Shown: piece after piece, positions 10,721-64,000 of the stretch
Numbering within the stretch: position 1 is the first letter of the stretch
How the letters are laid out: each line of letters begins with the position of its first letter
NCBI RefSeq assembly: GCF_017348835.2
Contig: NZ_CP071375.1
DNA: 64,000 bases
Reading direction: 5' to 3' (one strand)
Source: Escherichia coli
GTDB lineage: Bacteria > Pseudomonadota > Gammaproteobacteria > Enterobacterales > Enterobacteriaceae
The notes under the pieces: model-generated
Told to the model about the DNA's origin: nothing
Databases searched by the model: none
The model's input: only the letters and a program-made list of their open reading frames with translations
Made by a program: the position numbers and the translations under genes

Positions 10721-12421
10721 GTGATTGTTAAACGACCCGTCTCGGCCAGTCTGGCCCGGGCCTTTTTTTACATTGTGCTGCTGTCGATTCTTTCCACGGG
10801 TATCGCTCTGCTAACTCTGGCGAGCAGTTTGCGCGACGCTGAGGCTATCAATATTGCCGGATCGCTGCGTATGCAGAGTTACCGCCTGGGCTACGACTTG
10901 CAAAGTGGCAGTCCACAACTCAATGCACATCGCCAGTTATTTCAGCAGGCACTGCATTCACCGGTATTAACCAACCTCAACGTCTGGTATGTGCCAGAAG
11001 CAGTAAAAACTCGCTATGCGCATCTGAATGCAAACTGGCTGGAGATGAATAATCGGCTCAGCAAGGGCGATTTGCCGTGGTATCAGGCCAATATTAATAA
11101 TTATGTTAATCAGATAGACCTGTTCGTGCTGGCTTTACAGCACTACGCTGAACGCAAAATGCTGCTGGTGGTGGCGATTTCCCTGGCTGGCGGTATCGGT
11201 ATTTTCACGCTGGTCTTTTTTACTTTGCGCCGCATACGCCATCAGGTGGTTGCCCCGCTGAATCAGCTGGTTACCGCCAGTCAGCGTATTGAACACGGAC
11301 AGTTCGACTCGCCGCCGCTGGATACCAGTCTGCCGAATGAGCTTGGTCTGCTTGCAAAAACCTTTAACCAGATGTCGAGCGAGCTGCATAAATTGTACCT
11401 TTCGCTGGAGGCGTCAGTAGAAGAAAAGACCCGCGATCTCCACGAGGCCAAGCGTCGTCTGGAGGTGTTGTATCAGTGTTCGCAGGCGCTGAACACCAGC
11501 CAGATTGATGTGCATTGTTTCCGCCATATTTTGCAGATTGTTCGCGACAATGAAGCGGCTGAATATCTGGAGCTGAACGTTGGGGATAACTGGCGGATTA
11601 GCGAAGGGCAACCAAACCCGGAATTGCCGATGCAGATTTTACCGGTGACAATGCAAGAGACGGTTTACGGCGAACTGCACTGGCAAAATAGTCACGTTTC
11701 ATCATCAGAACCGCTGCTTAACAGCGTTTCGTCGATGCTGGGACGCGGTTTGTACTTTAATCAGGCGCAGAAGCATTTTCAGCAGTTATTGTTGATGGAA
11801 GAACGTGCGACCATCGCCCGCGAATTGCACGACTCGCTGGCTCAGGTGCTTTCTTACTTACGTATCCAGTTGACGTTACTTAAGCGTTCGATACCGGAAG
11901 ATAACGCCACCGCACAAAGTATCATGGCCGATTTTTCCCAGGCGTTGAATGATGCTTATCGGCAGTTACGCGAGCTGTTGACTACTTTCCGCCTGACGCT
12001 GCAGCAGGCGGATCTCCCCTCCGCGTTGAGGGAAATGCTGGATACGTTACAAAATCAAACCAGCGCCAAACTGACCCTCGACTGCCGTCTGCCAACCCTG
12101 GCACTGGATGCGCAAATGCAGGTGCATTTGTTGCAAATTATTCGCGAAGCGGTGCTGAATGCGATGAAGCACGCCAACGCCAGCGAAATCGCCGTCAGTT
12201 GCGTCACCGCGCCGGACGGCAATCACACGGTTTATATCCGTGATAACGGGATTGGTATCGGTGAACCGAAAGAGCCCGAAGGTCATTATGGACTGAATAT
12301 CATGCGCGAACGCGCGGAACGGCTGGGCGGGACGCTGACTTTTTCACAACCTTCCGGCGGCGGCACGTTAGTGAGTATTAGCTTTCGCTCCGCGGAGGGT
12401 GAGGAAAGTCAGCTGATGTAA
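10721..12421 (+). CDS. narQ: Nitrate/nitrite sensor histidine kinase NarQ
   Basis: The track ORF 10706..12421 is placed at the GTG at 10721 (MIVKRPVSASLARAFF...) to give 566 aa. It has an H-box (ELHDSLAQ) and a HATPase C-terminus. Confidence 0.93.
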   Translation: MIVKRPVSASLARAFFYIVLLSILSTGIALLTLASSLRDAEAINIAGSLRMQSYRLGYDLQSGSPQLNAHRQLFQQALHSPVLTNLNVWYVPEAVKTRYAHLNANWLEMNNRLSKGDLPWYQANINNYVNQIDLFVLALQHYAERKMLLVVAISLAGGIGIFTLVFFTLRRIRHQVVAPLNQLVTASQRIEHGQFDSPPLDTSLPNELGLLAKTFNQMSSELHKLYLSLEASVEEKTRDLHEAKRRLEVLYQCSQALNTSQIDVHCFRHILQIVRDNEAAEYLELNVGDNWRISEGQPNPELPMQILPVTMQETVYGELHWQNSHVSSSEPLLNSVSSMLGRGLYFNQAQKHFQQLLLMEERATIARELHDSLAQVLSYLRIQLTLLKRSIPEDNATAQSIMADFSQALNDAYRQLRELLTTFRLTLQQADLPSALREMLDTLQNQTSAKLTLDCRLPTLALDAQMQVHLLQIIREAVLNAMKHANASEIAVSCVTAPDGNHTVYIRDNGIGIGEPKEPEGHYGLNIMRERAERLGGTLTFSQPSGGGTLVSISFRSAEGEESQLM

Positions 12422-54601: not shown

Positions 54602-54928
54602 ATGACTAAAAATACTCGTTTTTCCCCCGAAGTCCGTCAGCGGGCGATTCGTATGGTTCTGGAAAGTCAGGATGAATATGACTCACAGTGGGCGGCAATT
54701 TGTTCCATTGCCCCAAAGATTGGCTGTACGCCGGAGACTCTGCGTGTCTGGGTTCGCCAGCATGAGCGGGATACCGGGAGTGGTGATGGTGGACTCACCA
54801 CCGCTGAACGTCAGCGTCTGAAAGAGCTGGAACGTGAAAATCGTGAACTGCGCCGCAGTAACGATATCCTTCGCCAGGCTTCCGCTTATTTTGCGAAGGC
54901 GGAGTTCGACCGCCTCTGGAAAAAATAA
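54602..54928 (+). CDS. IS3-family transposase OrfA (HTH/leucine-zipper)
   Basis: 108-aa [26 protein letters not shown]... ending at an A6 run followed by TAA. Confidence 0.95.
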
Positions 54929-55815
54929 TGCCACTGCTGGATAAGCTGCGTGAGCAGTACGGGGTCGGACCGGTATGCAGCGAACTGCATATTGCCCCGT
55001 CAACGTATTACCATTGTCAGCAACAGCGACATCATCCGGATAAACGCAGTGCCCGTGCGCAGCACGATGACTGGCTGAAGAAAGAGATACAGCGCGTATA
55101 CGATGAAAATCACCAGGTATACGGTGTGCGTAAAGTCTGGCGTCAGTTGTTACGGGAAGGTATCAGAGTGGCCAGATGCACTGTGGCACGTCTCATGGCA
55201 GTTATGGGACTTGCCGGTGTTCTCCGGGGTAAAAAGGTCCGCACTACCGTCAGCCGGAAAGCCGTTGCCGCATGCGACCGCGTAAACCGTCAGTTCGTGG
55301 CAGAACGTCCAGACCAGTTGTGGGTGGCTGATTTTACCTGGGTAAGCACATGGCAGGGCTTCGTTTATGTGGCGTTCATCATTGATGTGTTCGCCGGATA
55401 CATCGTGGGATGGCAGGTCTCATCATCCATGGAAACAACATTCGTGCTGGATGCACTGGAGCAGGCGTTGTGGGCCCGTCGGCCGTCCGGCACAATCCAT
55501 CACAGTGATAAAGGTTCTCAGTATGTATCGCTGGCCTACACGCAGCGGCTTAAGGAAGCCGGATTACTGGCATCAACAGGGAGTACTGGCGACTCGTATG
55601 ACAACGCGATGGCTGAGAGCATCAATGGTCTTTACAAAGCGGAGGTAATACACCGTAAGAGCTGGAAAAACCGGACAGAAGTGGAACTGGCCACACTAAC
55701 GTGGGTGGACTGGTATAACAATCGACGATTGCTGGAAAGGCTGGGCCATATTCCTCCGGCAGAAGCAGAAAAAGCTTATTATGCTTCCATCGGAAATAAT
55801 GATCTGGCAGCCTGA
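54928..55815 (+). CDS. IS3-family transposase OrfB (DDE catalytic domain), in the -1 frame relative to OrfA
   Basis: 295-aa ORF with DDE residues in WVADFT, HHSDKGSQY and NAMAESIN. The -1 frame is open from 54862, so an OrfAB fusion by programmed frameshifting at the A6 run is possible. Confidence 0.95.
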   Translation: MPLLDKLREQYGVGPVCSELHIAPSTYYHCQQQRHHPDKRSARAQHDDWLKKEIQRVYDENHQVYGVRKVWRQLLREGIRVARCTVARLMAVMGLAGVLRGKKVRTTVSRKAVAACDRVNRQFVAERPDQLWVADFTWVSTWQGFVYVAFIIDVFAGYIVGWQVSSSMETTFVLDALEQALWARRPSGTIHHSDKGSQYVSLAYTQRLKEAGLLASTGSTGDSYDNAMAESINGLYKAEVIHRKSWKNRTEVELATLTWVDWYNNRRLLERLGHIPPAEAEKAYYASIGNNDLAA

Positions 55816-55857
55816 GTTCACAGATAAAACACTCTCCAGGAAACCCGGGGCGGTTCA

Positions 55858-55964
55858 AACTCGTACAGTGGCGTACCACTGGGGTCCATTCCTTCAAGTC
55901 TCAGGGAAGCCTCTGCTTTGCGGAAGCCCTCAATGCGTAACCGTGTATAGGGAGTCCTAGACAT
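55858..55964 (-). pseudogene. 5' fragment (35 codons) of a VbhA-like (Fic-associated) antitoxin gene, cut by the IS
   Basis: The reverse strand reads AAGGAAAAAC ATG TCT AGG ... = MSRTPYTRLRIEGFRKAEASLRLEGMDPSGTPLYE, running straight into the IS right end. The A.ASLRLEG..PS motif is typical of VbhA-family antitoxins. Confidence 0.55.
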
Positions 55965-56045
55965 GTTTTTCCTTTGAGTTGCAGGAGTGAGGTTCGCTCA
56001 GTGAAAGCGTCAGCTCACGCAACCTCGTTAACTGACGCGCGTGAT

Positions 56046-57446
56046 TCAAGATTTATTATTACCCGATAAGCTATCACCGGCAAAATCATCATGTTCGCGG
56101 TTATCCCGACGAGTAGCTGTTTGTTTACTTATCTGAGTCGCCAACTCCTCTCCAATAGTTTGTTGGGCACGAGAAGAACTGCTACTTCGCTTCATTCTCT
56201 GGTACTCAGCAGCTCCGTTAGCCATGCTGCTTCCCATATGGCTTGCCATGCGGCCAGCACGCGAGAATGAAGCAAACCCCTGACTTCCTCCACTGGCGCT
56301 ACCTGAACTGCTCCCTGCAGACGAACCACTGTAACCGCCTGAGGTTTGGCCTCCAGAAGTATCTACAGAACCGGTATCTTCCCCGCCGCCAAATCCTCCA
56401 CCGGAACCGCCTCCGCTGCCTGAACCAGATTCTTCGTCCATGGCAGCTTGCGCAGACTCGAATGCTGCCTTTAATGCTGAAGCTCCGCCGCTGACTTGAG
56501 CTGATGCCCCCATTGCCATTGCTCCAGCACCGCTGATGGCAGTAGCGGCTGCGCCGGTAATCATACCCGCCCCAAATCCACCAATCCCTTGTAAAGAAGC
56601 CCCTCCTACAACACCTGATAACAACAGTGGTAGCTTATTAGTTAATACTAACAGGATAATTGACGCCAGAAGCAAAACTATAAGACTATTAAGATCAGGA
56701 ACATCATCTTTAATAAGAGAAAAATATTGATCTATAAATGATTGTCCAATCCCAATAATTAATGTCATCGTGAATAATTGAATGCCAATCGATAAAACAG
56801 TTCGTAAGTAATTAATTGCTATATCAGAGGTCCATTTCGAACCACCAAACCCAAGCAATATAACTCCTGCATAACATAACACCCATGCAGAAACCAACAT
56901 GATTAGCATATTTATCGCTATAAGGGACATCACTACCAAAACGATTATCGCGACTGTTATCATAATGGTGGATATCATTGGCGACCAAATTGATGCGGCT
57001 GAACTGATCTTGGTTAATATCGCAAACGCCATATCAACTATGCTTGAGGGAGAAATACCAATACTTATTTCTAAAGCGTTTGCTGCAAGTTGTCTCATTG
57101 AATTAATTATGGATTGCGATATGGATGGACCGTTGATTAAAAGATAATAAAAAAAACCAATGACGGCAAAAAAGCGAACTATTTCAGCAAGTACCCCTGT
57201 CAACCCTTCCCCTTGCATCGCCATCATACCAAATGTCCAAACCATACTTATTAATACCAGCCCCCAGAAGAGCCAATTTGCATAGTCAGCAATTACTGCT
57301 GTCCATGTACTGGCTACTTGTTGAAACTTATCTAATAAAGTATCAAGTAGCCCGCTACTATCTAATTGACCAGCATAGGCATTAATAGAAAAGAAAAGTA
57401 TGATACCTAAAAAGGTGAGCTTACTTACTATTTTCATGATTACCAT
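56046..57446 (-). CDS. trbL: TrbL/VirB6-family type IV secretion membrane protein with a Gly/Ser-rich C-terminal tail
   Basis: 466-aa ORF with a signal peptide, multiple TM segments and trbJ-trbK-trbL synteny. The low-complexity tail reads GSGSGGGSGGGFGGGEDTGS.... Confidence 0.8.
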   Translation of the reverse strand: MVIMKIVSKLTFLGIILFFSINAYAGQLDSSGLLDTLLDKFQQVASTWTAVIADYANWLFWGLVLISMVWTFGMMAMQGEGLTGVLAEIVRFFAVIGFFYYLLINGPSISQSIINSMRQLAANALEISIGISPSSIVDMAFAILTKISSAASIWSPMISTIMITVAIIVLVVMSLIAINMLIMLVSAWVLCYAGVILLGFGGSKWTSDIAINYLRTVLSIGIQLFTMTLIIGIGQSFIDQYFSLIKDDVPDLNSLIVLLLASIILLVLTNKLPLLLSGVVGGASLQGIGGFGAGMITGAAATAISGAGAMAMGASAQVSGGASALKAAFESAQAAMDEESGSGSGGGSGGGFGGGEDTGSVDTSGGQTSGGYSGSSAGSSSGSASGGSQGFASFSRAGRMASHMGSSMANGAAEYQRMKRSSSSSRAQQTIGEELATQISKQTATRRDNREHDDFAGDSLSGNNKS

Positions 57447-57624: not shown

Positions 57625-58419
57625 TCACCAAATTCGCTTCGGGCTTGGTGTATTCTCTCCAGCTAACGCTTTTTCATCAGCGGCTATCTGTTGTGATTCT
57701 TTATCTGCCTGAGCCTGTGCCAGTGTTGCTGCAGCGTTTTGTTGGGCTACCAGAAGTGAGCGGATTTGCAGTAACTGATTTGTCTGTGCACTGGCAAGCT
57801 GGTTTGCCGCCTGAATAGCTTCCATTTGCCCTTGTGCGCCGCTTGCCTGAGTTTGTAATTCGGCAAGATTATCAGCATCGCTCTGCAGGGTGTTCTGCTG
57901 CTCGTCAATTACCTTAAATACTGCGTCATTGGCCTTTTTACGCGCCCCTGAGCTATTCTGTTCAGCTTCACGCAGTGCACTAATTTCAGACGCGGTACAT
58001 TCAACATTGCTGTTAAAGCAAGACGATGTCCTGTAGTAGTTAACATCCTGATAGCGTTTCAGGTACGCATCGAGACTCCCGGCCTGATTCTTGTAGTAAT
58101 TAAGGGTATCCTGCACCTGCAACAATTTATTAATTGTTGAATTTGCCTGGTCCCAGATATAGGCCGCAGGAGCTACGGTGTTCTGCAGCATGTTTTCATA
58201 CTGCTGCAGCTGCGTCTGGTACTGCTGGATTTGTTTAGTCACAGCCTGAACGTTGTTAACTGCGCTGATTGTGGTCTGAACCACATTAGTGCCATCAATA
58301 ACGGGAATTCCGGCCTTCACCGGTAATGCCATGACGGACGCCACGAAAGGAACTATTAAAGCTTTTTTAGCGGCTAAAATCCCTCTTTGTGATGAAACCA
58401 CTCGGAACTTTAAATTCAT
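57625..58419 (-). CDS. trbJ: TrbJ/VirB5-family type IV secretion protein
   Basis: 264-aa ORF with a strong RBS (AAGAGGTGA), a signal peptide and the coiled-coil-rich Q/N-rich sequence typical of P-type TrbJ. Confidence 0.8.
   Translation of the reverse strand: MNLKFRVVSSQRGILAAKKALIVPFVASVMALPVKAGIPVIDGTNVVQTTISAVNNVQAVTKQIQQYQTQLQQYENMLQNTVAPAAYIWDQANSTINKLLQVQDTLNYYKNQAGSLDAYLKRYQDVNYYRTSSCFNSNVECTASEISALREAEQNSSGARKKANDAVFKVIDEQQNTLQSDADNLAELQTQASGAQGQMEAIQAANQLASAQTNQLLQIRSLLVAQQNAAATLAQAQADKESQQIAADEKALAGENTPSPKRIW
58366..58378. promoter_or_regulatory. KorB-operator-like palindrome TTTAGCGGCTAAA inside the 5' end of trbJ
   Basis: An exact 13-mer matching the IncP O_B consensus TTTAGCSGCTAAA lies 41-53 nt downstream of the trbJ ATG. 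Confidence 0.6.
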
Positions 58420-58462
58420 TTGCTCACCTCTTTTTCAACAGATTAGTAATATTTAACACTCT

Positions 58463-58476
58463 GTCTGTTAACAGAC
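58463..58476. promoter_or_regulatory. Perfect 14-bp palindrome GTCTGTTAACAGAC between traJ-like and trbJ (candidate operator or promoter-overlapping site)
   Basis: Read directly. It lies 44-57 nt upstream of the trbJ ATG and contains a TTAACA -35-like hexamer. Confidence 0.3.
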
Positions 58477-58499
58477 GCAGGTATATAGGAAACCACACA

Positions 58500-58853
58500 T
58501 TATTTATCCAAGATTTTATCCATAATGTTCCTTAGTTCTTGCCGAGTTGATTCTATTTTCGCAAGCAAGGTTCTTATCAGTGTGGGTGAAAAATCAACTG
58601 TTCGAGGATCATTTGCGAGCCATAATTTAAGTAATCCGCCAAGTCTTCCAAGATCAGCATTTACTCGGCTAAGTTCATTAACCTGTTTTATATCTACGAT
58701 AGAATCAACCTGATAACCCATTGCAACTCTACGAACAAAACAGGCAACACTTAATCCAGATGCTTCTGCATTTTCTTGGATGAGAATTTTTTCTTCGGGT
58801 AAACAATAAACTTTTATTGGCGTACTATTTTTTCTAGTCTGAGTAACTTTCAT
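58500..58853 (-). CDS. traJ: TraJ-like oriT-binding relaxosome accessory protein (IncP TraJ / MobC-type RHH)
   Basis: The track ORF 58500..58865 is placed at an ATG at 58853 preceded by GGAGAG. TPIKVYCLPEEK...VNADLGRLGGLLKLWLANDPRT...LLAKIE is colinear with RP4 TraJ as I recall it (PPIKVYCLPDER...INGDLGRLGGLLKLWLTDDPRT...LLAKIE). Confidence 0.85.
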   Translation of the reverse strand: MKVTQTRKNSTPIKVYCLPEEKILIQENAEASGLSVACFVRRVAMGYQVDSIVDIKQVNELSRVNADLGRLGGLLKLWLANDPRTVDFSPTLIRTLLAKIESTRQELRNIMDKILDK

Positions 58854-58868
58854 ATAGCTCTCCATACA

Positions 58869-58984
58869 GGCGGTAGCCTGGCAGCCTCGCAGAGCAGGAC
58901 GCCCTTGAGCCGCGATGCGGCGAATAGGGAGTGGTAAAGTTGGAACACCGTAGCGGTGGGCCCACTTTACATGTCCTGCCCTGC
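58869..58984 (+). other. IncP-type origin of transfer (oriT); predicted nick between 58978 and 58979 on the + strand
   Basis: The sequence is colinear with the RP4/RK2 oriT as I recall it. It shares an identical 18-mer CAGCCTCGCAGAGCAGGA (58882-58899), GCGAATAGGGA, GGAACACC, the hairpin CACCG-TAG-CGGTG, GGTGGGCC and the nick core GTCCTG/CCC (RP4 ATCCTG/CCC). Its position upstream of traJ is the same as in RP4. Confidence 0.8.
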
Positions 58985-59246
58985 AGTTGCCGTTGTATAT
59001 CTGTGCACGACAATGTGTATTTCAGTGTACAGGATGTGTTTTCTTAGCGTATTAATATAGGATTACTGGAGTAAATTTCTGCAGCAAATGTGTTTTTTGC
59101 AAGGAAACTATATTTCTCCCTTTTGAAAATGACCTTTAGTAGTTATAAATGGACGTCCACCAACTGTATTTATGTTTCGATATATTGTAAGAAGTCTTTC
59201 ATTTTCCGATGCACTTTTTTACTTACCTTGTCAGAGCATGTGCATT

Positions 59247-59271
59247 GCAGATTTTAGCGGCTAAAATCTGC
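59247..59271. promoter_or_regulatory. KorB-operator-like site embedded in a 25-bp perfect palindrome GCAGATTTTAGC-G-GCTAAAATCTGC
   Basis: Read directly. The core TTTAGCGGCTAAA is at 59253-59265, in the non-coding region between oriT and the iterons. Confidence 0.65.
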
Positions 59272-59397
59272 CTCCCTATGCCTAAAGCTAGGGGCGTACC
59301 TCATATGTCATAAAATCTACCTCAAGTGTCAATATACCAAACGTGTAAGTAATCTCTTCTTCTGGCGTACAACCATCGGTCTTTGGCCGATTCTAGA

Positions 59398-59431
59398 TTT
59401 GAAAGCGCCTGCTCAGGCAGGTGATTTCAAA
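59398..59431. other. Imperfect 15-bp inverted repeat (hairpin) next to the iterons; candidate oriV structural element
   Basis: TTTGAAAGCGCCTGC-tcag-GCAGGTGATTTCAAA has 13 of 15 positions complementary. Confidence 0.35.
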
Positions 59432-59481
59432 GCCTGAATATACTGGTTGATCCTGAATAACCTGCAAAGGAGTTAAAAAAT

Positions 59482-59565
59482 CAGGCCTCTGTAGCACACT
59501 GGCGGGCCGTTACAGCACATCACCGGGCCGTAACGACACGTTACCGGGCCGTTGTAGCTCGTTTT
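59482..59565 (+). repeat. Iterons: three good and one degenerate 21-bp direct repeats (candidate IncQ-type oriV)
   Basis: The units start at 59503, 59524 and 59545: CGGGCCGTTACAGCACATCAC, CGGGCCGTAACGACACGTTAC, CGGGCCGTTGTAGCTCGTTTT, with exact 21-bp periodicity. A degenerate unit at 59482 matches 12 of 21. The last unit overlaps the repC-like stop codon. Confidence 0.7.
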
Positions 59566-60314
59566 ATCCTAGAATTTTGTATCTCAATGCCAATCGCTAG
59601 AAATTGTTTGCTATCTTCTTTTAATCTCCGCCGATAGTTACGTAATGTCATATTATTGGTACCTTCACCACTGACAGCTAAAATTAATGTATCAATATGC
59701 CAGCCGCCTTTAGGATCGTGCTTATGTGTTAATATATGACGTGCAACTGCTTGGCTAATACCATGCTGGAGACGAGCAATAGGACCTGGATCATGATGAA
59801 AATGCAAATCTCGCTTCAACAACATTACCAATGCAACACCCAAGCGTACTCTCCATAGGTTACGTTCACCACCAGTTAGAGGATTACGCCTAGTCATTGG
59901 TGAGGGTACGACATGGTCAATTAAACCGCCTAGAATGCAATAACCGTTTTTTTCTAAATCTGGCGTTACTATTTCAACAGTTGCCACACGTAGATCAACG
60001 AGTAGTTTTTTAATTCGATCATAACTGTATTGTGCATCGGATAGAGTTCGGCGTACTTTCGCTGGATCTACTAATAACTCGATTCCTCCATCAGAAATTT
60101 CTCGACGTTTCTCGGCCACATAGAGCATTGTTTCCACAATATCCGCATGACGTTGTCCTAGTCTTCCGGTAACTCGACAACGACCAAAACTAGTCTCCAT
60201 CCACTGCCCCTTCAGCGCCAAGGGACGTTGACTTGGTTGGTACAGAATGACTCTAGCCTGCAGAGCTGTGCTAGTAGGTGTAACTTTATTACCAGTTATC
60301 ATTTTCTGCACCAC
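59541..60314 (-). CDS. repC: IncQ RepC-like iteron-binding replication initiator
   Basis: 257-aa ORF directly downstream of the repA-like gene. The C-terminal half (...HILTHKHDPKGGWHIDTLILAVSG...RNYRRRLKED...) aligns by eye with RSF1010 RepC (...RLCGWIDPGKTGKASIDTLCGYVW...RKRRQRVREA...). The start is either GTG 60314 or ATG 60302. Confidence 0.7.
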   Translation of the reverse strand: MVQKMITGNKVTPTSTALQARVILYQPSQRPLALKGQWMETSFGRCRVTGRLGQRHADIVETMLYVAEKRREISDGGIELLVDPAKVRRTLSDAQYSYDRIKKLLVDLRVATVEIVTPDLEKNGYCILGGLIDHVVPSPMTRRNPLTGGERNLWRVRLGVALVMLLKRDLHFHHDPGPIARLQHGISQAVARHILTHKHDPKGGWHIDTLILAVSGEGTNNMTLRNYRRRLKEDSKQFLAIGIEIQNSRIKRATTAR

Positions 60315-60330
60315 TCAATGAAGACATACA

Positions 60331-61146
60331 TTATTTTGCTATTTGTTTTTTATTCTTCGATTTGAGTTGCGTTATCCTTAATACTCCTCCCTCATGTCTC
60401 TGTAACCAACGTTCTGGCGTACGTTCTCCATAATTTGCTTTATTTATTCCAAATCTAACAAATTGACCTCGAACATCATCAGAAATATCATACGTCTTCG
60501 CTTCTAAGGCGGTCATGCCCGCCAGATAAGATTGCCACCGTATATTATCAACCAGGACGCTACTACCCCTGCTTGCCTGCTGTATATCACCAACTCCCAT
60601 CGTGGCAGAGCCTTTGTTTGAATGGTGTAGAAATATAATCGAACACCCTGTATCAGCAGCAATACCTTCTAGCTTTCCAATGACTTTGGACATTGCTCCG
60701 CTATTATTTTCATCTTCCTGGTGGAAACGGCGAAGAGTATCCAAAATTATTAACCGTCTACTTTTTGAAATCTCATTAATCAAGTTGCTCCAACCTGGCG
60801 AGAAAATATTTGGACACTTCCCTACCAAAGGTTCGACAAGTAGCTTATCAGCAACAATCTGCTGCTGACGTGCTGTTAGATATTTTCCCAAAGCATATAG
60901 ACGATGGTGAATGATGGTTGCAGAGTCCTCCACAGGTAAATATGCCACTAACCCCGTTGGATATTCACCAAAGTTTAAAAGATCTACACCACAAGTAATC
61001 TGCACAGCCAGTTGCAATGCCAGCATTGACTTTCCAACGCCTCCCGGAGAAACAATCGCTCCGATAGTACCAATAGCCAAATTAGGCAAGACGTAATCAA
61101 TTGGTTGCGGCTTAGCTTCAAATGCTTCCATTATGTTCAATGACAT
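60331..61146 (-). CDS. repA: IncQ RepA-like hexameric replicative helicase (RecA/AAA fold)
   Basis: 271-aa ORF. IDYVLPNLAIGTIGAIVSPGGVGKSMLALQLA...LDTLRRFH...IAADTGCSIIFLHH..KG...QQASRGSSVLVDNIRWQSYL is near-colinear with RSF1010 RepA as I recall it. Walker A and B motifs are present. Confidence 0.85.
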   Translation of the reverse strand: MSLNIMEAFEAKPQPIDYVLPNLAIGTIGAIVSPGGVGKSMLALQLAVQITCGVDLLNFGEYPTGLVAYLPVEDSATIIHHRLYALGKYLTARQQQIVADKLLVEPLVGKCPNIFSPGWSNLINEISKSRRLIILDTLRRFHQEDENNSGAMSKVIGKLEGIAADTGCSIIFLHHSNKGSATMGVGDIQQASRGSSVLVDNIRWQSYLAGMTALEAKTYDISDDVRGQFVRFGINKANYGERTPERWLQRHEGGVLRITQLKSKNKKQIAK

Positions 61147-61151
61147 TGCTG

Positions 61152-61382
61152 TTACCTACCTAAAACAATACCGGGTCTGGCTGCTTTAAACATTGCTGAT
61201 TTACGATCCGCAATCCACTGTTCCACTTCGGATAACTGCCATGCAACATTTCGGCTCGTAAGTGCTATACGGCGAGGAAACTCGCCTCGCTGTTCAAGGT
61301 TATAAATAGTGCGGGCTGACAATGGGATCATTTCCAGAAGTGTTTTTCTGTTAATGAGCGTGCTATGTGCCTTTGTTTGCAT
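61152..61382 (-). CDS. alpA: AlpA-family (MerR-type HTH_17) regulator/excisionase
   Basis: The track ORF 61152..61403 is placed at an ATG at 61382 preceded by GGAGGAAGG, giving MQTKAHSTLINRKTLLEMIPLSARTIYNLEQRGEFPRRI.... This is the typical AlpA/Xis motif, located 5 nt upstream of repA. Confidence 0.8.
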   Translation of the reverse strand: MQTKAHSTLINRKTLLEMIPLSARTIYNLEQRGEFPRRIALTSRNVAWQLSEVEQWIADRKSAMFKAARPGIVLGR

Positions 61383-61459
61383 CTGCCTTCCTCCTGTTTC
61401 CAATCAGGCCTATACAATGCCAAGCATTACCACTTGCTAAAACCTATTCATTGGCTAAA

Positions 61460-62431
61460 ATGGTTGACATGAAAATTACTATCTGGGAAGGCTGTGACCT
61501 CACAGTTGCAGCTGCAATTAAATTATTTGTAGAGCGTAGTTCTCCGTACTCCATATTTTCACGGAGGTATCCAATACTGCGTCTCATACAGGAAGTTATT
61601 GATCCAGCAGTAGCTGATTATGTAAATTCCCTGCCACCAAGTCATAAAGACTACATTTCTGGAGTAAATCTAGGATTTAGTGAAGTACTTAAAAAATTGG
61701 GTTTAAACGTCGTAGTACAGGCACAAAGACTTCTTTTGCGTAATTTCGTTCTGACTTTAGATCAACAAACTTCTCTTGATAAATGCTTTACCGCTACGAT
61801 TGAGTCTCTTATTGAATTAGTCAGTGAATGCGCATCCAAGCGGCCGAAGAAATCCTCTCCTGCAAAAGGAGTAACTATAAATTCACAGCGTAAGCTCGGT
61901 TATTGCGAGTTCTGCGGTAATCTAACCGAATTTTCCAAGTTGATCAGTGAGATATCAGAATTTGTTGCTAACGATAATGAGTTCCCCGTTCATGAAAAAC
62001 AGGTCCTTAGTCATCGATATTGTTCTGACCATAGGCCCAAACTCACCAATGGTCTATGGAATCCCAAATACAGACAAGGAAAGCGGTCTCTCGAACAGTT
62101 CAATAAAGAATTAATAAGGCTTAGACGGCAATGCGCTAAACCTCATAAAGCTAACGCAAACACAGGGGATATATTGATTGATACATATTTTCATGAGTGG
62201 ATGCAGGGTCAAACTTTAACCCCAGCAGATCTAGATAAACTTAGGAATATCGCCAGACGAATGGTTGACTCCAAATTCACTGATACTAAGAAAAAAATAA
62301 TCATATTAAAACACCAAGGTTTTAACCAGTTTGAAACCGCACAGGTTTTAGAAAAAAATCACTACACAACTATGACAAAGCAGGCTGTGTCCAAGGCCTT
62401 AGCGTCTGTGAGGAAAGAATTTTATATTTAA
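61460..62431 (+). CDS. Hypothetical protein with a CxxC...CxxH motif and a C-terminal HTH-like (sigma70 region 4/LuxR-like) segment; divergent from alpA
   Basis: The long track ORF 61367..62431 has its first 31 codons overlapping alpA, so I place the start at 61460 or 61469. No good RBS is visible and the start is uncertain. Motifs are GYCEFCG...YCSDH and ...ILKHQGFNQFETAQVLEKNHYTTMTKQAVSKALASVRKEF. Confidence 0.55.
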   Translation: MVDMKITIWEGCDLTVAAAIKLFVERSSPYSIFSRRYPILRLIQEVIDPAVADYVNSLPPSHKDYISGVNLGFSEVLKKLGLNVVVQAQRLLLRNFVLTLDQQTSLDKCFTATIESLIELVSECASKRPKKSSPAKGVTINSQRKLGYCEFCGNLTEFSKLISEISEFVANDNEFPVHEKQVLSHRYCSDHRPKLTNGLWNPKYRQGKRSLEQFNKELIRLRRQCAKPHKANANTGDILIDTYFHEWMQGQTLTPADLDKLRNIARRMVDSKFTDTKKKIIILKHQGFNQFETAQVLEKNHYTTMTKQAVSKALASVRKEFYI

Positions 62432-62853
62432 AATAGTATATCCACGAGCTATTATGGTGGCAGTTTAAGTCTTAATACCATCCACTTTATTGAATTATAA
62501 CCAGCCACTTACGAAGGTTTTTCGCGATTACCCTGCTTCAAATTGATGATTTTGAAAATACAGTATTATAGTTTATTGTTTGTAGCGCAGCTGTAAGCGT
62601 TATGCAAAATGGATCACAGTGATACGACCTCACCAGTAAATCACTGAAGCCGATCTGTAATGACATAGAACGAATTGGTTTTATGGTTATGCAATGGCTC
62701 ATCCCCTTACTTGTCCCTGACCATAAAAAGCATTCGCTTTCCTGAAAGCAAGTCTAAGCCAAGGGGCGTTTACAGTTGTCTTATCTTGACTCATTAGGTA
62801 CTGGCTTAATGATTAGAATCATGTCGGTGGCATTTAGGTCCAAATATGCCCAA

Positions 62854-62872
62854 AATTTTAGCAGCTAAAATT
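62854..62872. promoter_or_regulatory. KorB-operator-like palindrome, variant centre (AATTTTAGC-A-GCTAAAATT)
   Basis: A 9-1-9 perfect palindrome is read directly with core TTTAGCAGCTAAA at 62857-62869, in a non-coding gap. Confidence 0.55.
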
Positions 62873-63008
62873 CGTCTTCTCATGTAGGGTCAAGAAGCTT
62901 ATGACTAAACCTATTGATTATGTGAATTACCTTGTGAGTAATACTCGTAGGATGGAATCTTCCAAAACTCTGACAATTCACTCTGAATGCATGGTAACAA
63001 AGAACAGT

Positions 63009-63638
63009 TTAAACCATGGTCTGTTCAGCGTTAAATTTCTCAAGATAGACTTCCATTTCGCGAGTCCACCTAGGGGTAGGTACCGAGGTGATCATTAGCC
63101 AAGGAAACCACCATACAAGCATGAAGAGTAACATAAGCGGTGCGATCATTTCGGCCGAAGAATGAGAAACTATATACATAATGAATAATATTAGTAGAAC
63201 TGTGTTTACAATCTGACCTACCAGAAAAAGACGCCAGCGAAAACAATGCCATTTCCTGTTGAACACAATCCGTCCATCCCGTTCTTCGAGCCAGTTACGC
63301 CACGGCTTGAGATAACCAGCCCGCAACCCATAACGATCACACATTATTACAGCCAAATCCTGCAGCCGATAATTATACAAGCCTGTGAGCCGATAAAGGC
63401 TGCGCTGACGAAGCTCACGCTTTGCCAGACGGACCGCATTTTTATTCAAATATGGCTGTGTCAGCATTTGCTCTAGCCGGCGCTTCCTAAGATTGAGTAG
63501 TCCACGAAATACACTTCCAGATTCAGCATTAATTACTCTGTGACGAACTACACCGAGTGCAATATAGATACACAGCAATAGCCAGCCGGTCTTAGGGTAT
63601 TGATTCATCCATTGTATAATTACAGACAACTCAGGCAC
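63009..63638 (-). CDS. Hypothetical membrane protein (one N-terminal and two C-terminal TM helices, basic central domain), GTG start
   Basis: 209-aa track ORF with hydrophobic segments TGWLLLCIYIALGVV, LFLVGQIVNTVLLILFIMYIV and MIAPLMLLFMLVWWFPWLMI. I recognise no family. Confidence 0.6.
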   Translation of the reverse strand: MPELSVIIQWMNQYPKTGWLLLCIYIALGVVRHRVINAESGSVFRGLLNLRKRRLEQMLTQPYLNKNAVRLAKRELRQRSLYRLTGLYNYRLQDLAVIMCDRYGLRAGYLKPWRNWLEERDGRIVFNRKWHCFRWRLFLVGQIVNTVLLILFIMYIVSHSSAEMIAPLMLLFMLVWWFPWLMITSVPTPRWTREMEVYLEKFNAEQTMV

Positions 63639-63689
63639 TTTTATTTTTCCTTTTTATGCAATCCAGATAAAACCAGTAAAGATTCAGTA

Positions 63690-63708
63690 AATTTTAGCGG
63701 CTAAAATT
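63690..63708. promoter_or_regulatory. KorB-operator-like palindrome AATTTTAGC-G-GCTAAAATT upstream of the membrane-protein gene
   Basis: A 9-1-9 perfect palindrome has its core TTTAGCGGCTAAA at 63693-63705. It lies 52-70 nt upstream of the GTG at 63638 and 54 nt downstream of the int stop. Confidence 0.65.
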
Positions 63709-63761: not shown

Positions 63762-64000
63762 CTACTTACTAGTCCATTCATCAATCATATTCGCCCAATC
63801 TTGTAGCATCTCAGCCCTCTGCTCACGATATTCTGCCTTGTTATAAACAGCTCGTACCCCTTTTTGTTCATGGGCAAGGCTCTTCTCAATCCAGTCAGTA
63901 TTGTACCCGGCCTCATGTAGCAAGGTGCTGGCTGTACGCCGTAAGTCATGGGGACCAAACTTAGGCAACAACTCCCCTTCTTTCTGAGCCAGGCGATACG
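63762..64000 (-). CDS. int: Tyrosine recombinase (P4-type integrase), C-terminal about 79 codons; the 5' part lies right of the window
   Basis: The frame is open to the window edge. It reads ...YRLAQKEGELLPKFGPHDLRRTASTLLHEAGYNTDWIEKSLAHEQKGVRAVYNKAEY..., containing the HxLRxT box, LAH and the catalytic-Tyr region. Confidence 0.85.
   Translation of the reverse strand, partial: YRLAQKEGELLPKFGPHDLRRTASTLLHEAGYNTDWIEKSLAHEQKGVRAVYNKAEYREQRAEMLQDWANMIDEWTSK

Follow-up and report, generated by a model that had tools for sequence, protein, structure and literature searches.

KorB is the centromere-binding protein of IncP-1 (RK2) plasmid partition. It is also a CTP-dependent clamp of the ParB family that loads at its operator, O_B, slides along DNA for up to ~1.5 kb and, once KorA or TrbA locks it, represses promoters. 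The subject of this account is a set of four O_B palindromes in a chromosomal island of Escherichia coli strain PE164 that encodes no KorB. The island lies in the 64,000-nt stretch of contig NZ_CP071375.1 that was analysed (the window) and is, by its gene content and location, an IS3-truncated member of PIME1, a family of mobilizable elements integrated at guaA.

The PIMEs are newly described: ~1,100 elements that rely on IncP plasmids and disseminate defence systems and resistance genes (Perta et al., bioRxiv 10.64898/2026.01.12.698999; the source of what follows in this paragraph). Excision of PIME1 is triggered by the IncP-1 plasmids pB10 and pKJK5 and not by IncN, IncX or IncL/M plasmids, and IncP-induced excision has been shown for PIME1EcRHB23-C07 and PIME1MmNCTC12028. 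The genes int, luxR and alpA are essential for induction (luxR in PIME1Mm). The excised element replicates to ~8 copies from an iteron-type oriV located downstream of rep. Replicating PIME1Mm lowers the abundance of pB10 and makes colonies smaller, and a repA-oriV clone has apparent segregation defects. pB10 and pKJK5 induced the E. coli PIME1 without mobilising it. The preprint leaves open what the inducer is and what causes the "potential incompatibility"; KorB, operator, ParB and palindrome do not occur in its text. A literature search found no paper tying KorB sites to GIsul2-type or guaA islands. The family and its dependence on IncP plasmids were known before; of the orphan KorB sites, the searchable literature appears to contain no report.

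The closest parallel is SGI1, an integrative mobilizable element with two mimics of the parS site of its IncC helper plasmid, which bind helper ParB and are the basis of its stabilisation by helper ParABS (Muranyi et al., NAR 2024, PMC10954446). SGI1 also expels the IncC plasmid, and this depends on SGI1's own replication (PMC10954446).

Four KorB operator sequences in an island that lacks korB

The pattern TTTAGCNGCTAAA is matched exactly four times in the window (starts at 58366, 59253, 62857 and 63693) and nowhere else in its 64 kb. Dinucleotide shuffles of the window give a mean of 0.01 matches, with 0 of 100 shuffles reaching four, and the expectation from base composition is 0.26 per 4.6-Mb E. 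coli genome, or ~0.0005 per 5.3-kb stretch. A similar density elsewhere in the chromosome, which a preceding interpretation made from the letters of the window (the sequence-only reading) had named as a finding that would refute it, is not seen: 173 kb of flanking E. coli chromosome from 6 strains contain no match.

Site 1 (58366-58378; TTTAGCGGCTAAA) occupies codons 14-18 of trbJ, the ILAAK stretch of the signal peptide. Site 2 (59247-59271, core 59253-59265) is a 25-bp palindrome (12+1+12) between oriT and the oriV iterons. Site 3 (62857-62869; TTTAGCAGCTAAA) lies 3' of luxR at the left edge of a cargo slot, and site 4 (63693-63705) at the right edge of that slot, where it follows the int stop by ~57 bp and precedes the gene of a 209-residue membrane protein by 55 bp. 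The central base is G in the sites at 58366, 59253 and 63693 and A in the site at 62857. Sites 2, 3 and 4 have the longer form ATTTTAGC-N-GCTAAAAT; site 1 reaches no further than TTTTAGCGGCTAAAA. The sequence-only reading had listed the 13-mer three times and its central-A variant once, with three of the four sites extended and site 2 a perfect palindrome over its 25 bp, and the pattern search agrees with it throughout. It had also pointed to additional GCTAAAAT half-sites at 59677 and 61454, which are present but not meaningful. Two isolated half-sites are unremarkable because ~0.4 are expected per 8 kb at this composition. The half-site at 59677 is inside a coding region and is not kept in relatives, which read GCTAATAT; that at 61454 shares bases with the luxR start codon, and the stretch around it is conserved as a whole. 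Both were rejected as features on these grounds.

The IncP-1 operator contains the 13-bp palindrome TTTAGC(G/C)GCTAAA, to which three of the four window sites conform exactly, the fourth being the one with the central A. pJJ1886_4, an IncP-1-like plasmid of low GC content that has trfA, korA-incC-korB and complete sets of trb and tra genes, contains this 13-mer 15 times, mostly as (A)TTTTAGCSGCTAAAA(T); R751 (IncP-1beta), which encodes korA-incC-korB, contains it nine times in its first 50 kb. The oligonucleotide used for loading RK2 KorB in vitro contains the 16-mer ATTTTAGCGGCTAAAA, and this 16-mer is also found in sites 2 and 4 of the window. By their identity to O_B, the four palindromes are predicted to be genuine IncP-1 KorB-binding sites. 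Flanking sequence points to a particular branch of these plasmids: position -1 is T in 90 of 98 sites of PIME elements, in 13 of 15 of pJJ1886_4 and in 5 of 9 of R751, so that the O_B flanks of the islands are, as judged by sequence comparison, closer to those of pJJ1886_4 (low-GC, enterobacterial, IncP-1-like) than to those of R751.

A site homologous to site 1 lies at the 5' end of trbJ in pJJ1886_4 (L003 22143), R751 (L036 25579) and GIsul2 (L009 11552), and in nearly all PIME1 loci. In pJJ1886_4 and R751 it falls in the first codons, which encode (F/V)LAAK of the signal peptide. Because trbJ of these two plasmids has the homologous site, site 1 was inherited with the IncP trbJ. (An origin of the traJ-trbJ junction by recombination at O_B was considered and rejected, the geometry being wrong: 80 bp and 14 trbJ codons precede the site.)

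The open reading frames of the island have no Pfam domain of the ParB or KorB kind, and korB, incC and korA are found neither in the island nor in the 20 kb beyond the window, which contain int, then guaA, guaB, xseA and housekeeping genes. The statement of the sequence-only reading that no korB is in sight is borne out by these searches, and a korB homologue just outside the window, which would have spoken for ordinary regulation in cis, was looked for in the 20 kb and not found. Searches by tblastn with KorB, IncC and KorA of an IncP-1-like plasmid returned nothing, at any coverage, in 27 PIME1-type loci, each taken with as much as 10 kb of flanking DNA. A DNA search of 5,426 complete E. coli genomes finds 63 with pJJ1886_4-type korA-incC-korB plasmids and 5, all laboratory strains, with RP4-type genes. 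PE164, whose chromosome is 100% identical to the window, is not among the records listed for IncP-1 korA-incC-korB (60 of 63 and 60 of 68), and no listed PIME1 host is among them either; with ~107 PIME1 hosts and 63 plasmid hosts in 5,426 genomes, ~1.2 would be shared by chance, so this lack of overlap is uninformative. Since there is no korB in the island, its neighbourhood or the listed records of the host, the sites are orphans in the resident state. The island is not an integrated IncP-1 plasmid, which would have trfA/oriV, korA-incC-korB and complete trb and tra operons: of the IncP-type genes and sites it has only trbJ, trbL, traJ and oriT, and its replication module is a RepA-type helicase with iterons.

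Other components of IncP-1 control were also looked for. On the plasmids, O_B lies upstream of a promoter that KorB represses, at a distance of either 4-10 bp or 45 to >1000 bp, and the promoter itself often has an operator for KorA or TrbA. The island contains no KorA operator (GTTTAGCTAAAC) and no KorC operator; pJJ1886_4 has four KorA operators. A TrbA-like pattern has one match with 1 mismatch in the island, at 59178; this pattern is doubtful because the plasmid (L003-L005) is matchless too. A scan for consensus promoters beside the four sites gave weak matches only, none of them convincing. An extended -10 element formed by the central-A variant on the - strand of site 3 was rejected, not being conserved in other lineages.

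Conservation of the sites among PIME1-type elements

Forty-one PIME1-type loci were collected, some of them near-duplicates of one another. They come from Escherichia, Shigella, Dickeya, Citrobacter, Yersinia, Phytobacter, Lonsdalea, Pseudescherichia, Serratia, Erwinia and Salmonella, and further from Providencia and Proteus types, Vibrio, Aeromonas, Halomonas, Gilvimarinus, Thalassospira, Oceanisphaera and Kerstersia. At least one O_B site is present in 40 of the 41, with 98 sites in total. In the 27-locus subset, there are 67 sites in 220 kb of element core versus 1 in 397 kb of flanks, and this lone flank site adjoins a traJ.

The sites recur at four positions. The first is in the 5' end of trbJ or immediately before it, and the second, in enterobacterial elements, is between oriT and the replication module. 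The third overlaps the luxR stop or follows it by 25-35 bp, in lineages with LuxR identity of 40-54%, among them V. cholerae, Kerstersia (where the entire luxR-int gap is ~32 bp) and Proteus elements with traI and a retron. The fourth, again in enterobacterial elements, is 67-72 bp from the int stop. The number of sites per element ranges from 0 to 4. The luxR-proximal site is missing in Lonsdalea and Serratia, Oceanisphaera has only half an O_B at the junction (L024, ~10985-11000), and GIsul2, a relative that lacks luxR, has the trbJ site only. Look-ups of LuxR homologues led to decayed Providencia elements and to the Proteus elements with traI and a retron (two sites each).

The LuxR protein of the window type is 40% identical to that of the types represented by EcPF16 (an element of the Perta et al. 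preprint, with four O_B sites) and WP3, and the Rep protein is different. Between these types, a 17-mer is the sole invariant block in otherwise unalignable intergenic DNA; at site 2, likewise, a block of 17-18 nt is invariant within DNA that does not align. Sites 2-4 lie in island-specific DNA without plasmid homology. To judge from this pattern of conservation, the sites are under selection.

In enterobacterial elements, two O_B sites (sites 3 and 4 here) bracket a variable cargo slot, 62870-63692 in the window. Between luxR and int, the slot holds the membrane-protein gene here, a hypothetical protein and an EexN lipoprotein in WP3 (L008 23218-24432), Gabija-like UvrD and OLD genes in V. 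cholerae (L032 11053-15038), and a retron in the Proteus type; in EcPF16 it is empty. The half O_B at the Oceanisphaera junction suggests that cargo is inserted at or beside the site.

Possible functions of the orphan sites

Mimicry of the helper's centromere combined with titration of its KorB is the function that we regard as moderately probable for the orphan O_B sites. With the island alone in the chromosome, they would be idle. On entry of an IncP-1-type helper, its KorB would load at the island sites; the IncC-KorB system of the helper would partition the island once this is excised and replicating; and the multiplied copies of O_B would compete with the plasmid for KorB, whereupon helper copy number or stability would fall. 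The proposal of the sequence-only reading that KorB from a co-resident IncP plasmid acts on these as orphan operators has turned out to be the best supported, given a family that is induced by IncP-1 plasmids only, sites identical to those of the plasmids, no korB, and conservation across genera. The fall of pB10 only upon excision and replication, and the segregation defects of the repA-oriV clone, are as O_B mimicry would predict. The best-conserved noncoding site lies between the 3' ends of luxR and of int or cargo; such a place between convergent 3' ends leaves no room for a promoter, which suits a loading site or centromere better than a classical operator. The absence of KorA operators from an island whose plasmid counterpart has four is counted on the same side.

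Several considerations weigh against centromere mimicry and titration. The positions of the sites are fixed relative to genes (the 5' end of trbJ and the 3' ends of luxR and int), and since a centromere needs no fixed position, this conservation hints at a regulatory role that is position-dependent. The luxR-proximal site is found in the luxR-bearing elements examined, while GIsul2 keeps just the site that came with trbJ. The effect on pB10 was measured on PIME1MmNCTC12028, and the sites were read here in its Proteus-type relatives, with two sites. The central A of site 3 is absent from the 24 plasmid sites compared. The PE164 copy is truncated, and in this strain the sites may therefore be functionless. 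KorB binding, partition and titration at these sites are predictions from sequence. Finally, SGI1 needed the small protein Sci in addition for strong incompatibility (PMC10954446).

A second function, compatible with partition and ranked behind it, is that of a helper sensor: KorB at the orphan sites would be the signal of IncP arrival, or part of it, that starts excision and replication. KorB might block convergent or antisense transcription into luxR, or slide and displace silencers from the AT-rich core of the island, in the manner of the ParB-like proteins VirB and BisD (the core is 41-44% GC within a chromosome that is 50-54% GC elsewhere). We consider this possible but clearly less probable. 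It would account for induction that is specific to IncP-1 plasmids and requires luxR and alpA (10.64898/2026.01.12.698999), and for the presence of O_B at, or no more than 35 bp from, the luxR stop in lineages whose LuxR proteins have diverged so far; with a sliding range of ~1.5 kb and a luxR gene of ~1 kb, the alpA-luxR promoters are in reach. ParB-like CTP clamps such as VirB and BisD can activate genes (PMC10770331, PMC12409273). On the other hand, repression is the only regulatory action known for KorB on its own plasmid, the clamp would find no KorA operator in the island to lock it, and no convincing promoter adjoins any of the sites. Moreover, the luxR-proximal site is missing in two genera and reduced to a half-site remnant in a third, and the number of sites varies down to none. 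The version that unites both functions, in which KorB is the helper signal that switches PIME1 on, chiefly through the site 3' of luxR, with the same sites serving as a stolen centromere, is offered more tentatively still.

That an island protein, most plausibly the LuxR-family regulator, binds palindromes that merely resemble O_B is unlikely. The sequence-only reading had offered such a takeover by the helix-turn-helix protein encoded at 61460-62431 as its alternative, and we find no positive support for it. It can be entertained because one site is always just after luxR: this site travels with luxR, and GIsul2, lacking the gene, lacks the site as well. GerE/LuxR-type helix-turn-helix dimers bind palindromes, and the model of the protein suggests a helix-turn-helix of the GerE type. 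In the AlphaFold model (pLDDT 80.6), only this C-terminal helix-turn-helix, the last ~50 residues, matches GerE, NarL or sigma-4 folds; the large helical N-terminal part is without a structural match and the sequence has an invariant CxxC...C..H motif (C149, C152, C188, H191). The protein shows neither a ParB-like fold nor similarity to KorA, TrbA or KorB. The 13-mer is the same as that of the plasmid operator, even its flanks being of the pJJ1886_4 type, and occurs in trbJ of plasmids that have no such regulator; it is invariant where LuxR diverges to 40% identity; and it is downstream of luxR, where an autoregulatory operator would be expected upstream.

The weakest explanation, that the sites are neutral and now functionless relics of the IncP-1 ancestry of the tra/trb modules, is very improbable: it suits site 1, which came with trbJ, is also held by signal-peptide coding and is the one that GIsul2 retains, but is excluded for sites 2-4 because these are conserved as the sole invariant blocks of diverged, island-specific intergenic DNA, where a neutral remnant of 13-17 bp would not outlast protein divergence to 40-54% identity across gamma- and beta-proteobacteria.

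Architecture of the island and known parallels

The order of features after IS3 is trbL, trbJ, traJ, oriT, three iterons, a 257-residue protein, the RepA helicase, alpA, divergent luxR, the 209-residue protein and the integrase. The IS3-family element (54602-55815, + strand) truncates the left part of the island, as comparison of strains indicates. It is followed by trbL (VirB6-type; 56046-57446, - strand; PF04610, E 1e-29; 56% amino acid identity to TrbL of pJJ1886_4), trbJ (57625-58419, - strand; RefSeq annotation; 85% amino acid identity to TrbJ of pJJ1886_4 and 57% to that of R751) and traJ, which encodes a NikA-like relaxosome accessory protein (58500-58865, - strand; PF21983, E 8e-23; 64% identity to TraJ of pJJ1886_4). 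The IncP-type oriT (58866-58995, + strand) matches the Rfam family traJ-II (RF01760) with 86.9 bits, and has a 17-nt inverted repeat at 58934-58970 and the nic region ACTTTACATGTCCTGCCC. It is 74% identical to oriT of pJJ1886_4 (L004 3789-4137), with an identical nic region.

Just to the right of O_B site 2, at 59297-59331, are two direct repeats of TACCTCAWRTGTCA, 21 bp apart. In EcPF16 and WP3, the second of these is conserved together with its context. The repeats are a candidate binding site for an island protein. Three iterons with 21-bp spacing (core CGGGCCGT; 59503-59558) constitute the putative oriV and overlap the 3' end of the gene for the 257-residue protein (59541-60314, - strand). 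This protein has no family match; it occupies the position of RepC and is a putative initiator, its gene being kept beside repA in PIME1 loci, with an IncQ-type RepC taking its place in others. The RepA-type helicase (AAA_25; 60331-61146, - strand; PF13481, E 9e-29) is followed by the alpA-type regulator, an excisionase-like helix-turn-helix protein (61152-61403, - strand; PF05930, E 7.5e-13), and, divergent from it, by the gene of the "LuxR-family" regulator (61460-62431, + strand; RefSeq annotation), a hallmark of PIME1.

A noncoding segment of ~290 nt that adjoins site 3 (62560-62850, + strand) is conserved by sequence comparison, with 79-84% nucleotide identity in variants whose luxR protein is only 40% identical. 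It lies between luxR and site 3 here, and between the two luxR-int O_B sites in the variants. Its predicted fold has a z-score of -1.94 for the + strand and -0.06 for the - strand relative to shuffles, and a long-range stem CGCAGCTGTAAGCG/CGTTTACAGTTG has 8 pairs with compensatory changes, among three sequence types only. There is no Rfam match to 62560-62850; the segment could be a small RNA, the 3' untranslated region of luxR, or a single-stranded DNA element of the transferred strand.

The 209-residue predicted membrane protein (63009-63638, - strand) is the cargo of the O_B-bracketed slot and has no Pfam or NCBIfam match. It was considered as an IncP backbone protein and this was rejected after a search for plasmid homologues: those found are 30-48% identical and confined to plasmids of Pantoea and Escherichia. 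The tyrosine integrase gene, of which the window has the 3' end (63762-64000, - strand), continues beyond it; the complete gene is at L001 27763-28953, with guaA at L001 29258-30835.

Assignment to PIME1 follows the criteria in the methods of Perta et al.: the island has the defining genes, all on the - strand, with luxR divergent from alpA, an IncP-like oriT, and a position next to guaA. In common with PIME1 as described by these authors, the window has the divergent luxR, an IncP-like oriT with a 17-nt inverted repeat, and traJ; it differs in being truncated by IS3. The left end, yfgH, yfgI, defence cargo and most of higA are present in 2017.20.01CC and EH41 and missing here, as seen at 54602-55815 and 55816-56045 of the window. 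Because IS3 has replaced the left part of the island, the PE164 copy probably cannot excise. The identical nic region and the matching O_B flanks make pJJ1886_4-type, low-GC IncP-1 plasmids the likely natural helpers of the E. coli elements, to which the TraJ and TrbJ identities add a further likeness. A cognate helper of this type may explain why pB10 and pKJK5 induce the E. coli PIME1 and do not mobilise it.

Two questions that the preprint leaves open, how PIMEs detect the helper and why helper copy number falls, become directly testable through the conserved orphan KorB sites. If centromere mimicry is confirmed, the device would extend from SGI1 and IncC to hijackers of IncP-1, the best-studied broad-host-range plasmids, and a CTP-dependent ParB clamp would act in trans on a foreign element. 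If the sites are sensors, an integrative mobilizable element would be eavesdropping on the global regulator of its helper by means of operators alone.

With the KorB-O_B regulon of RK2/RP4 and R751, the island shares an identical 13-bp palindrome and, at the 5' end of trbJ, a site homologous to the plasmids' own. Unlike the IncP-1 plasmids, it is devoid of korB, incC and korA in cis, of KorA operators, and of identifiable O_B-proximal promoters. Comparison may also be made with the AcaCD boxes of SGI1 and of mobilizable genomic islands, which reportedly are read by activators of IncC or SXT elements. These are likewise sites on an integrative mobilizable element for a regulator that only the helper encodes. 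AcaCD, however, is an activator acting at promoters, whereas KorB is a repressor and partition protein, and its sites on the island are not at recognisable promoters.

The case of SGI1 and IncC is, by analogy, a close parallel to the orphan KorB sites. There are differences: the helper is IncP-1 rather than IncC, and KorB, besides binding a centromere, is a global transcriptional repressor and a sliding clamp; PIME1 elements have as many as four sites, which lie at fixed boundaries of modules, one within coding sequence; and their function is read from sequence, with no counterpart of Sci identified. What the two have in common is an integrative mobilizable element that carries the binding site of its helper's ParB without carrying parB and that replicates after helper-induced excision. 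Just as incompatibility of SGI1 with its helper depends on SGI1 replication, the depression of pB10 by PIME1 is seen only when the element replicates.

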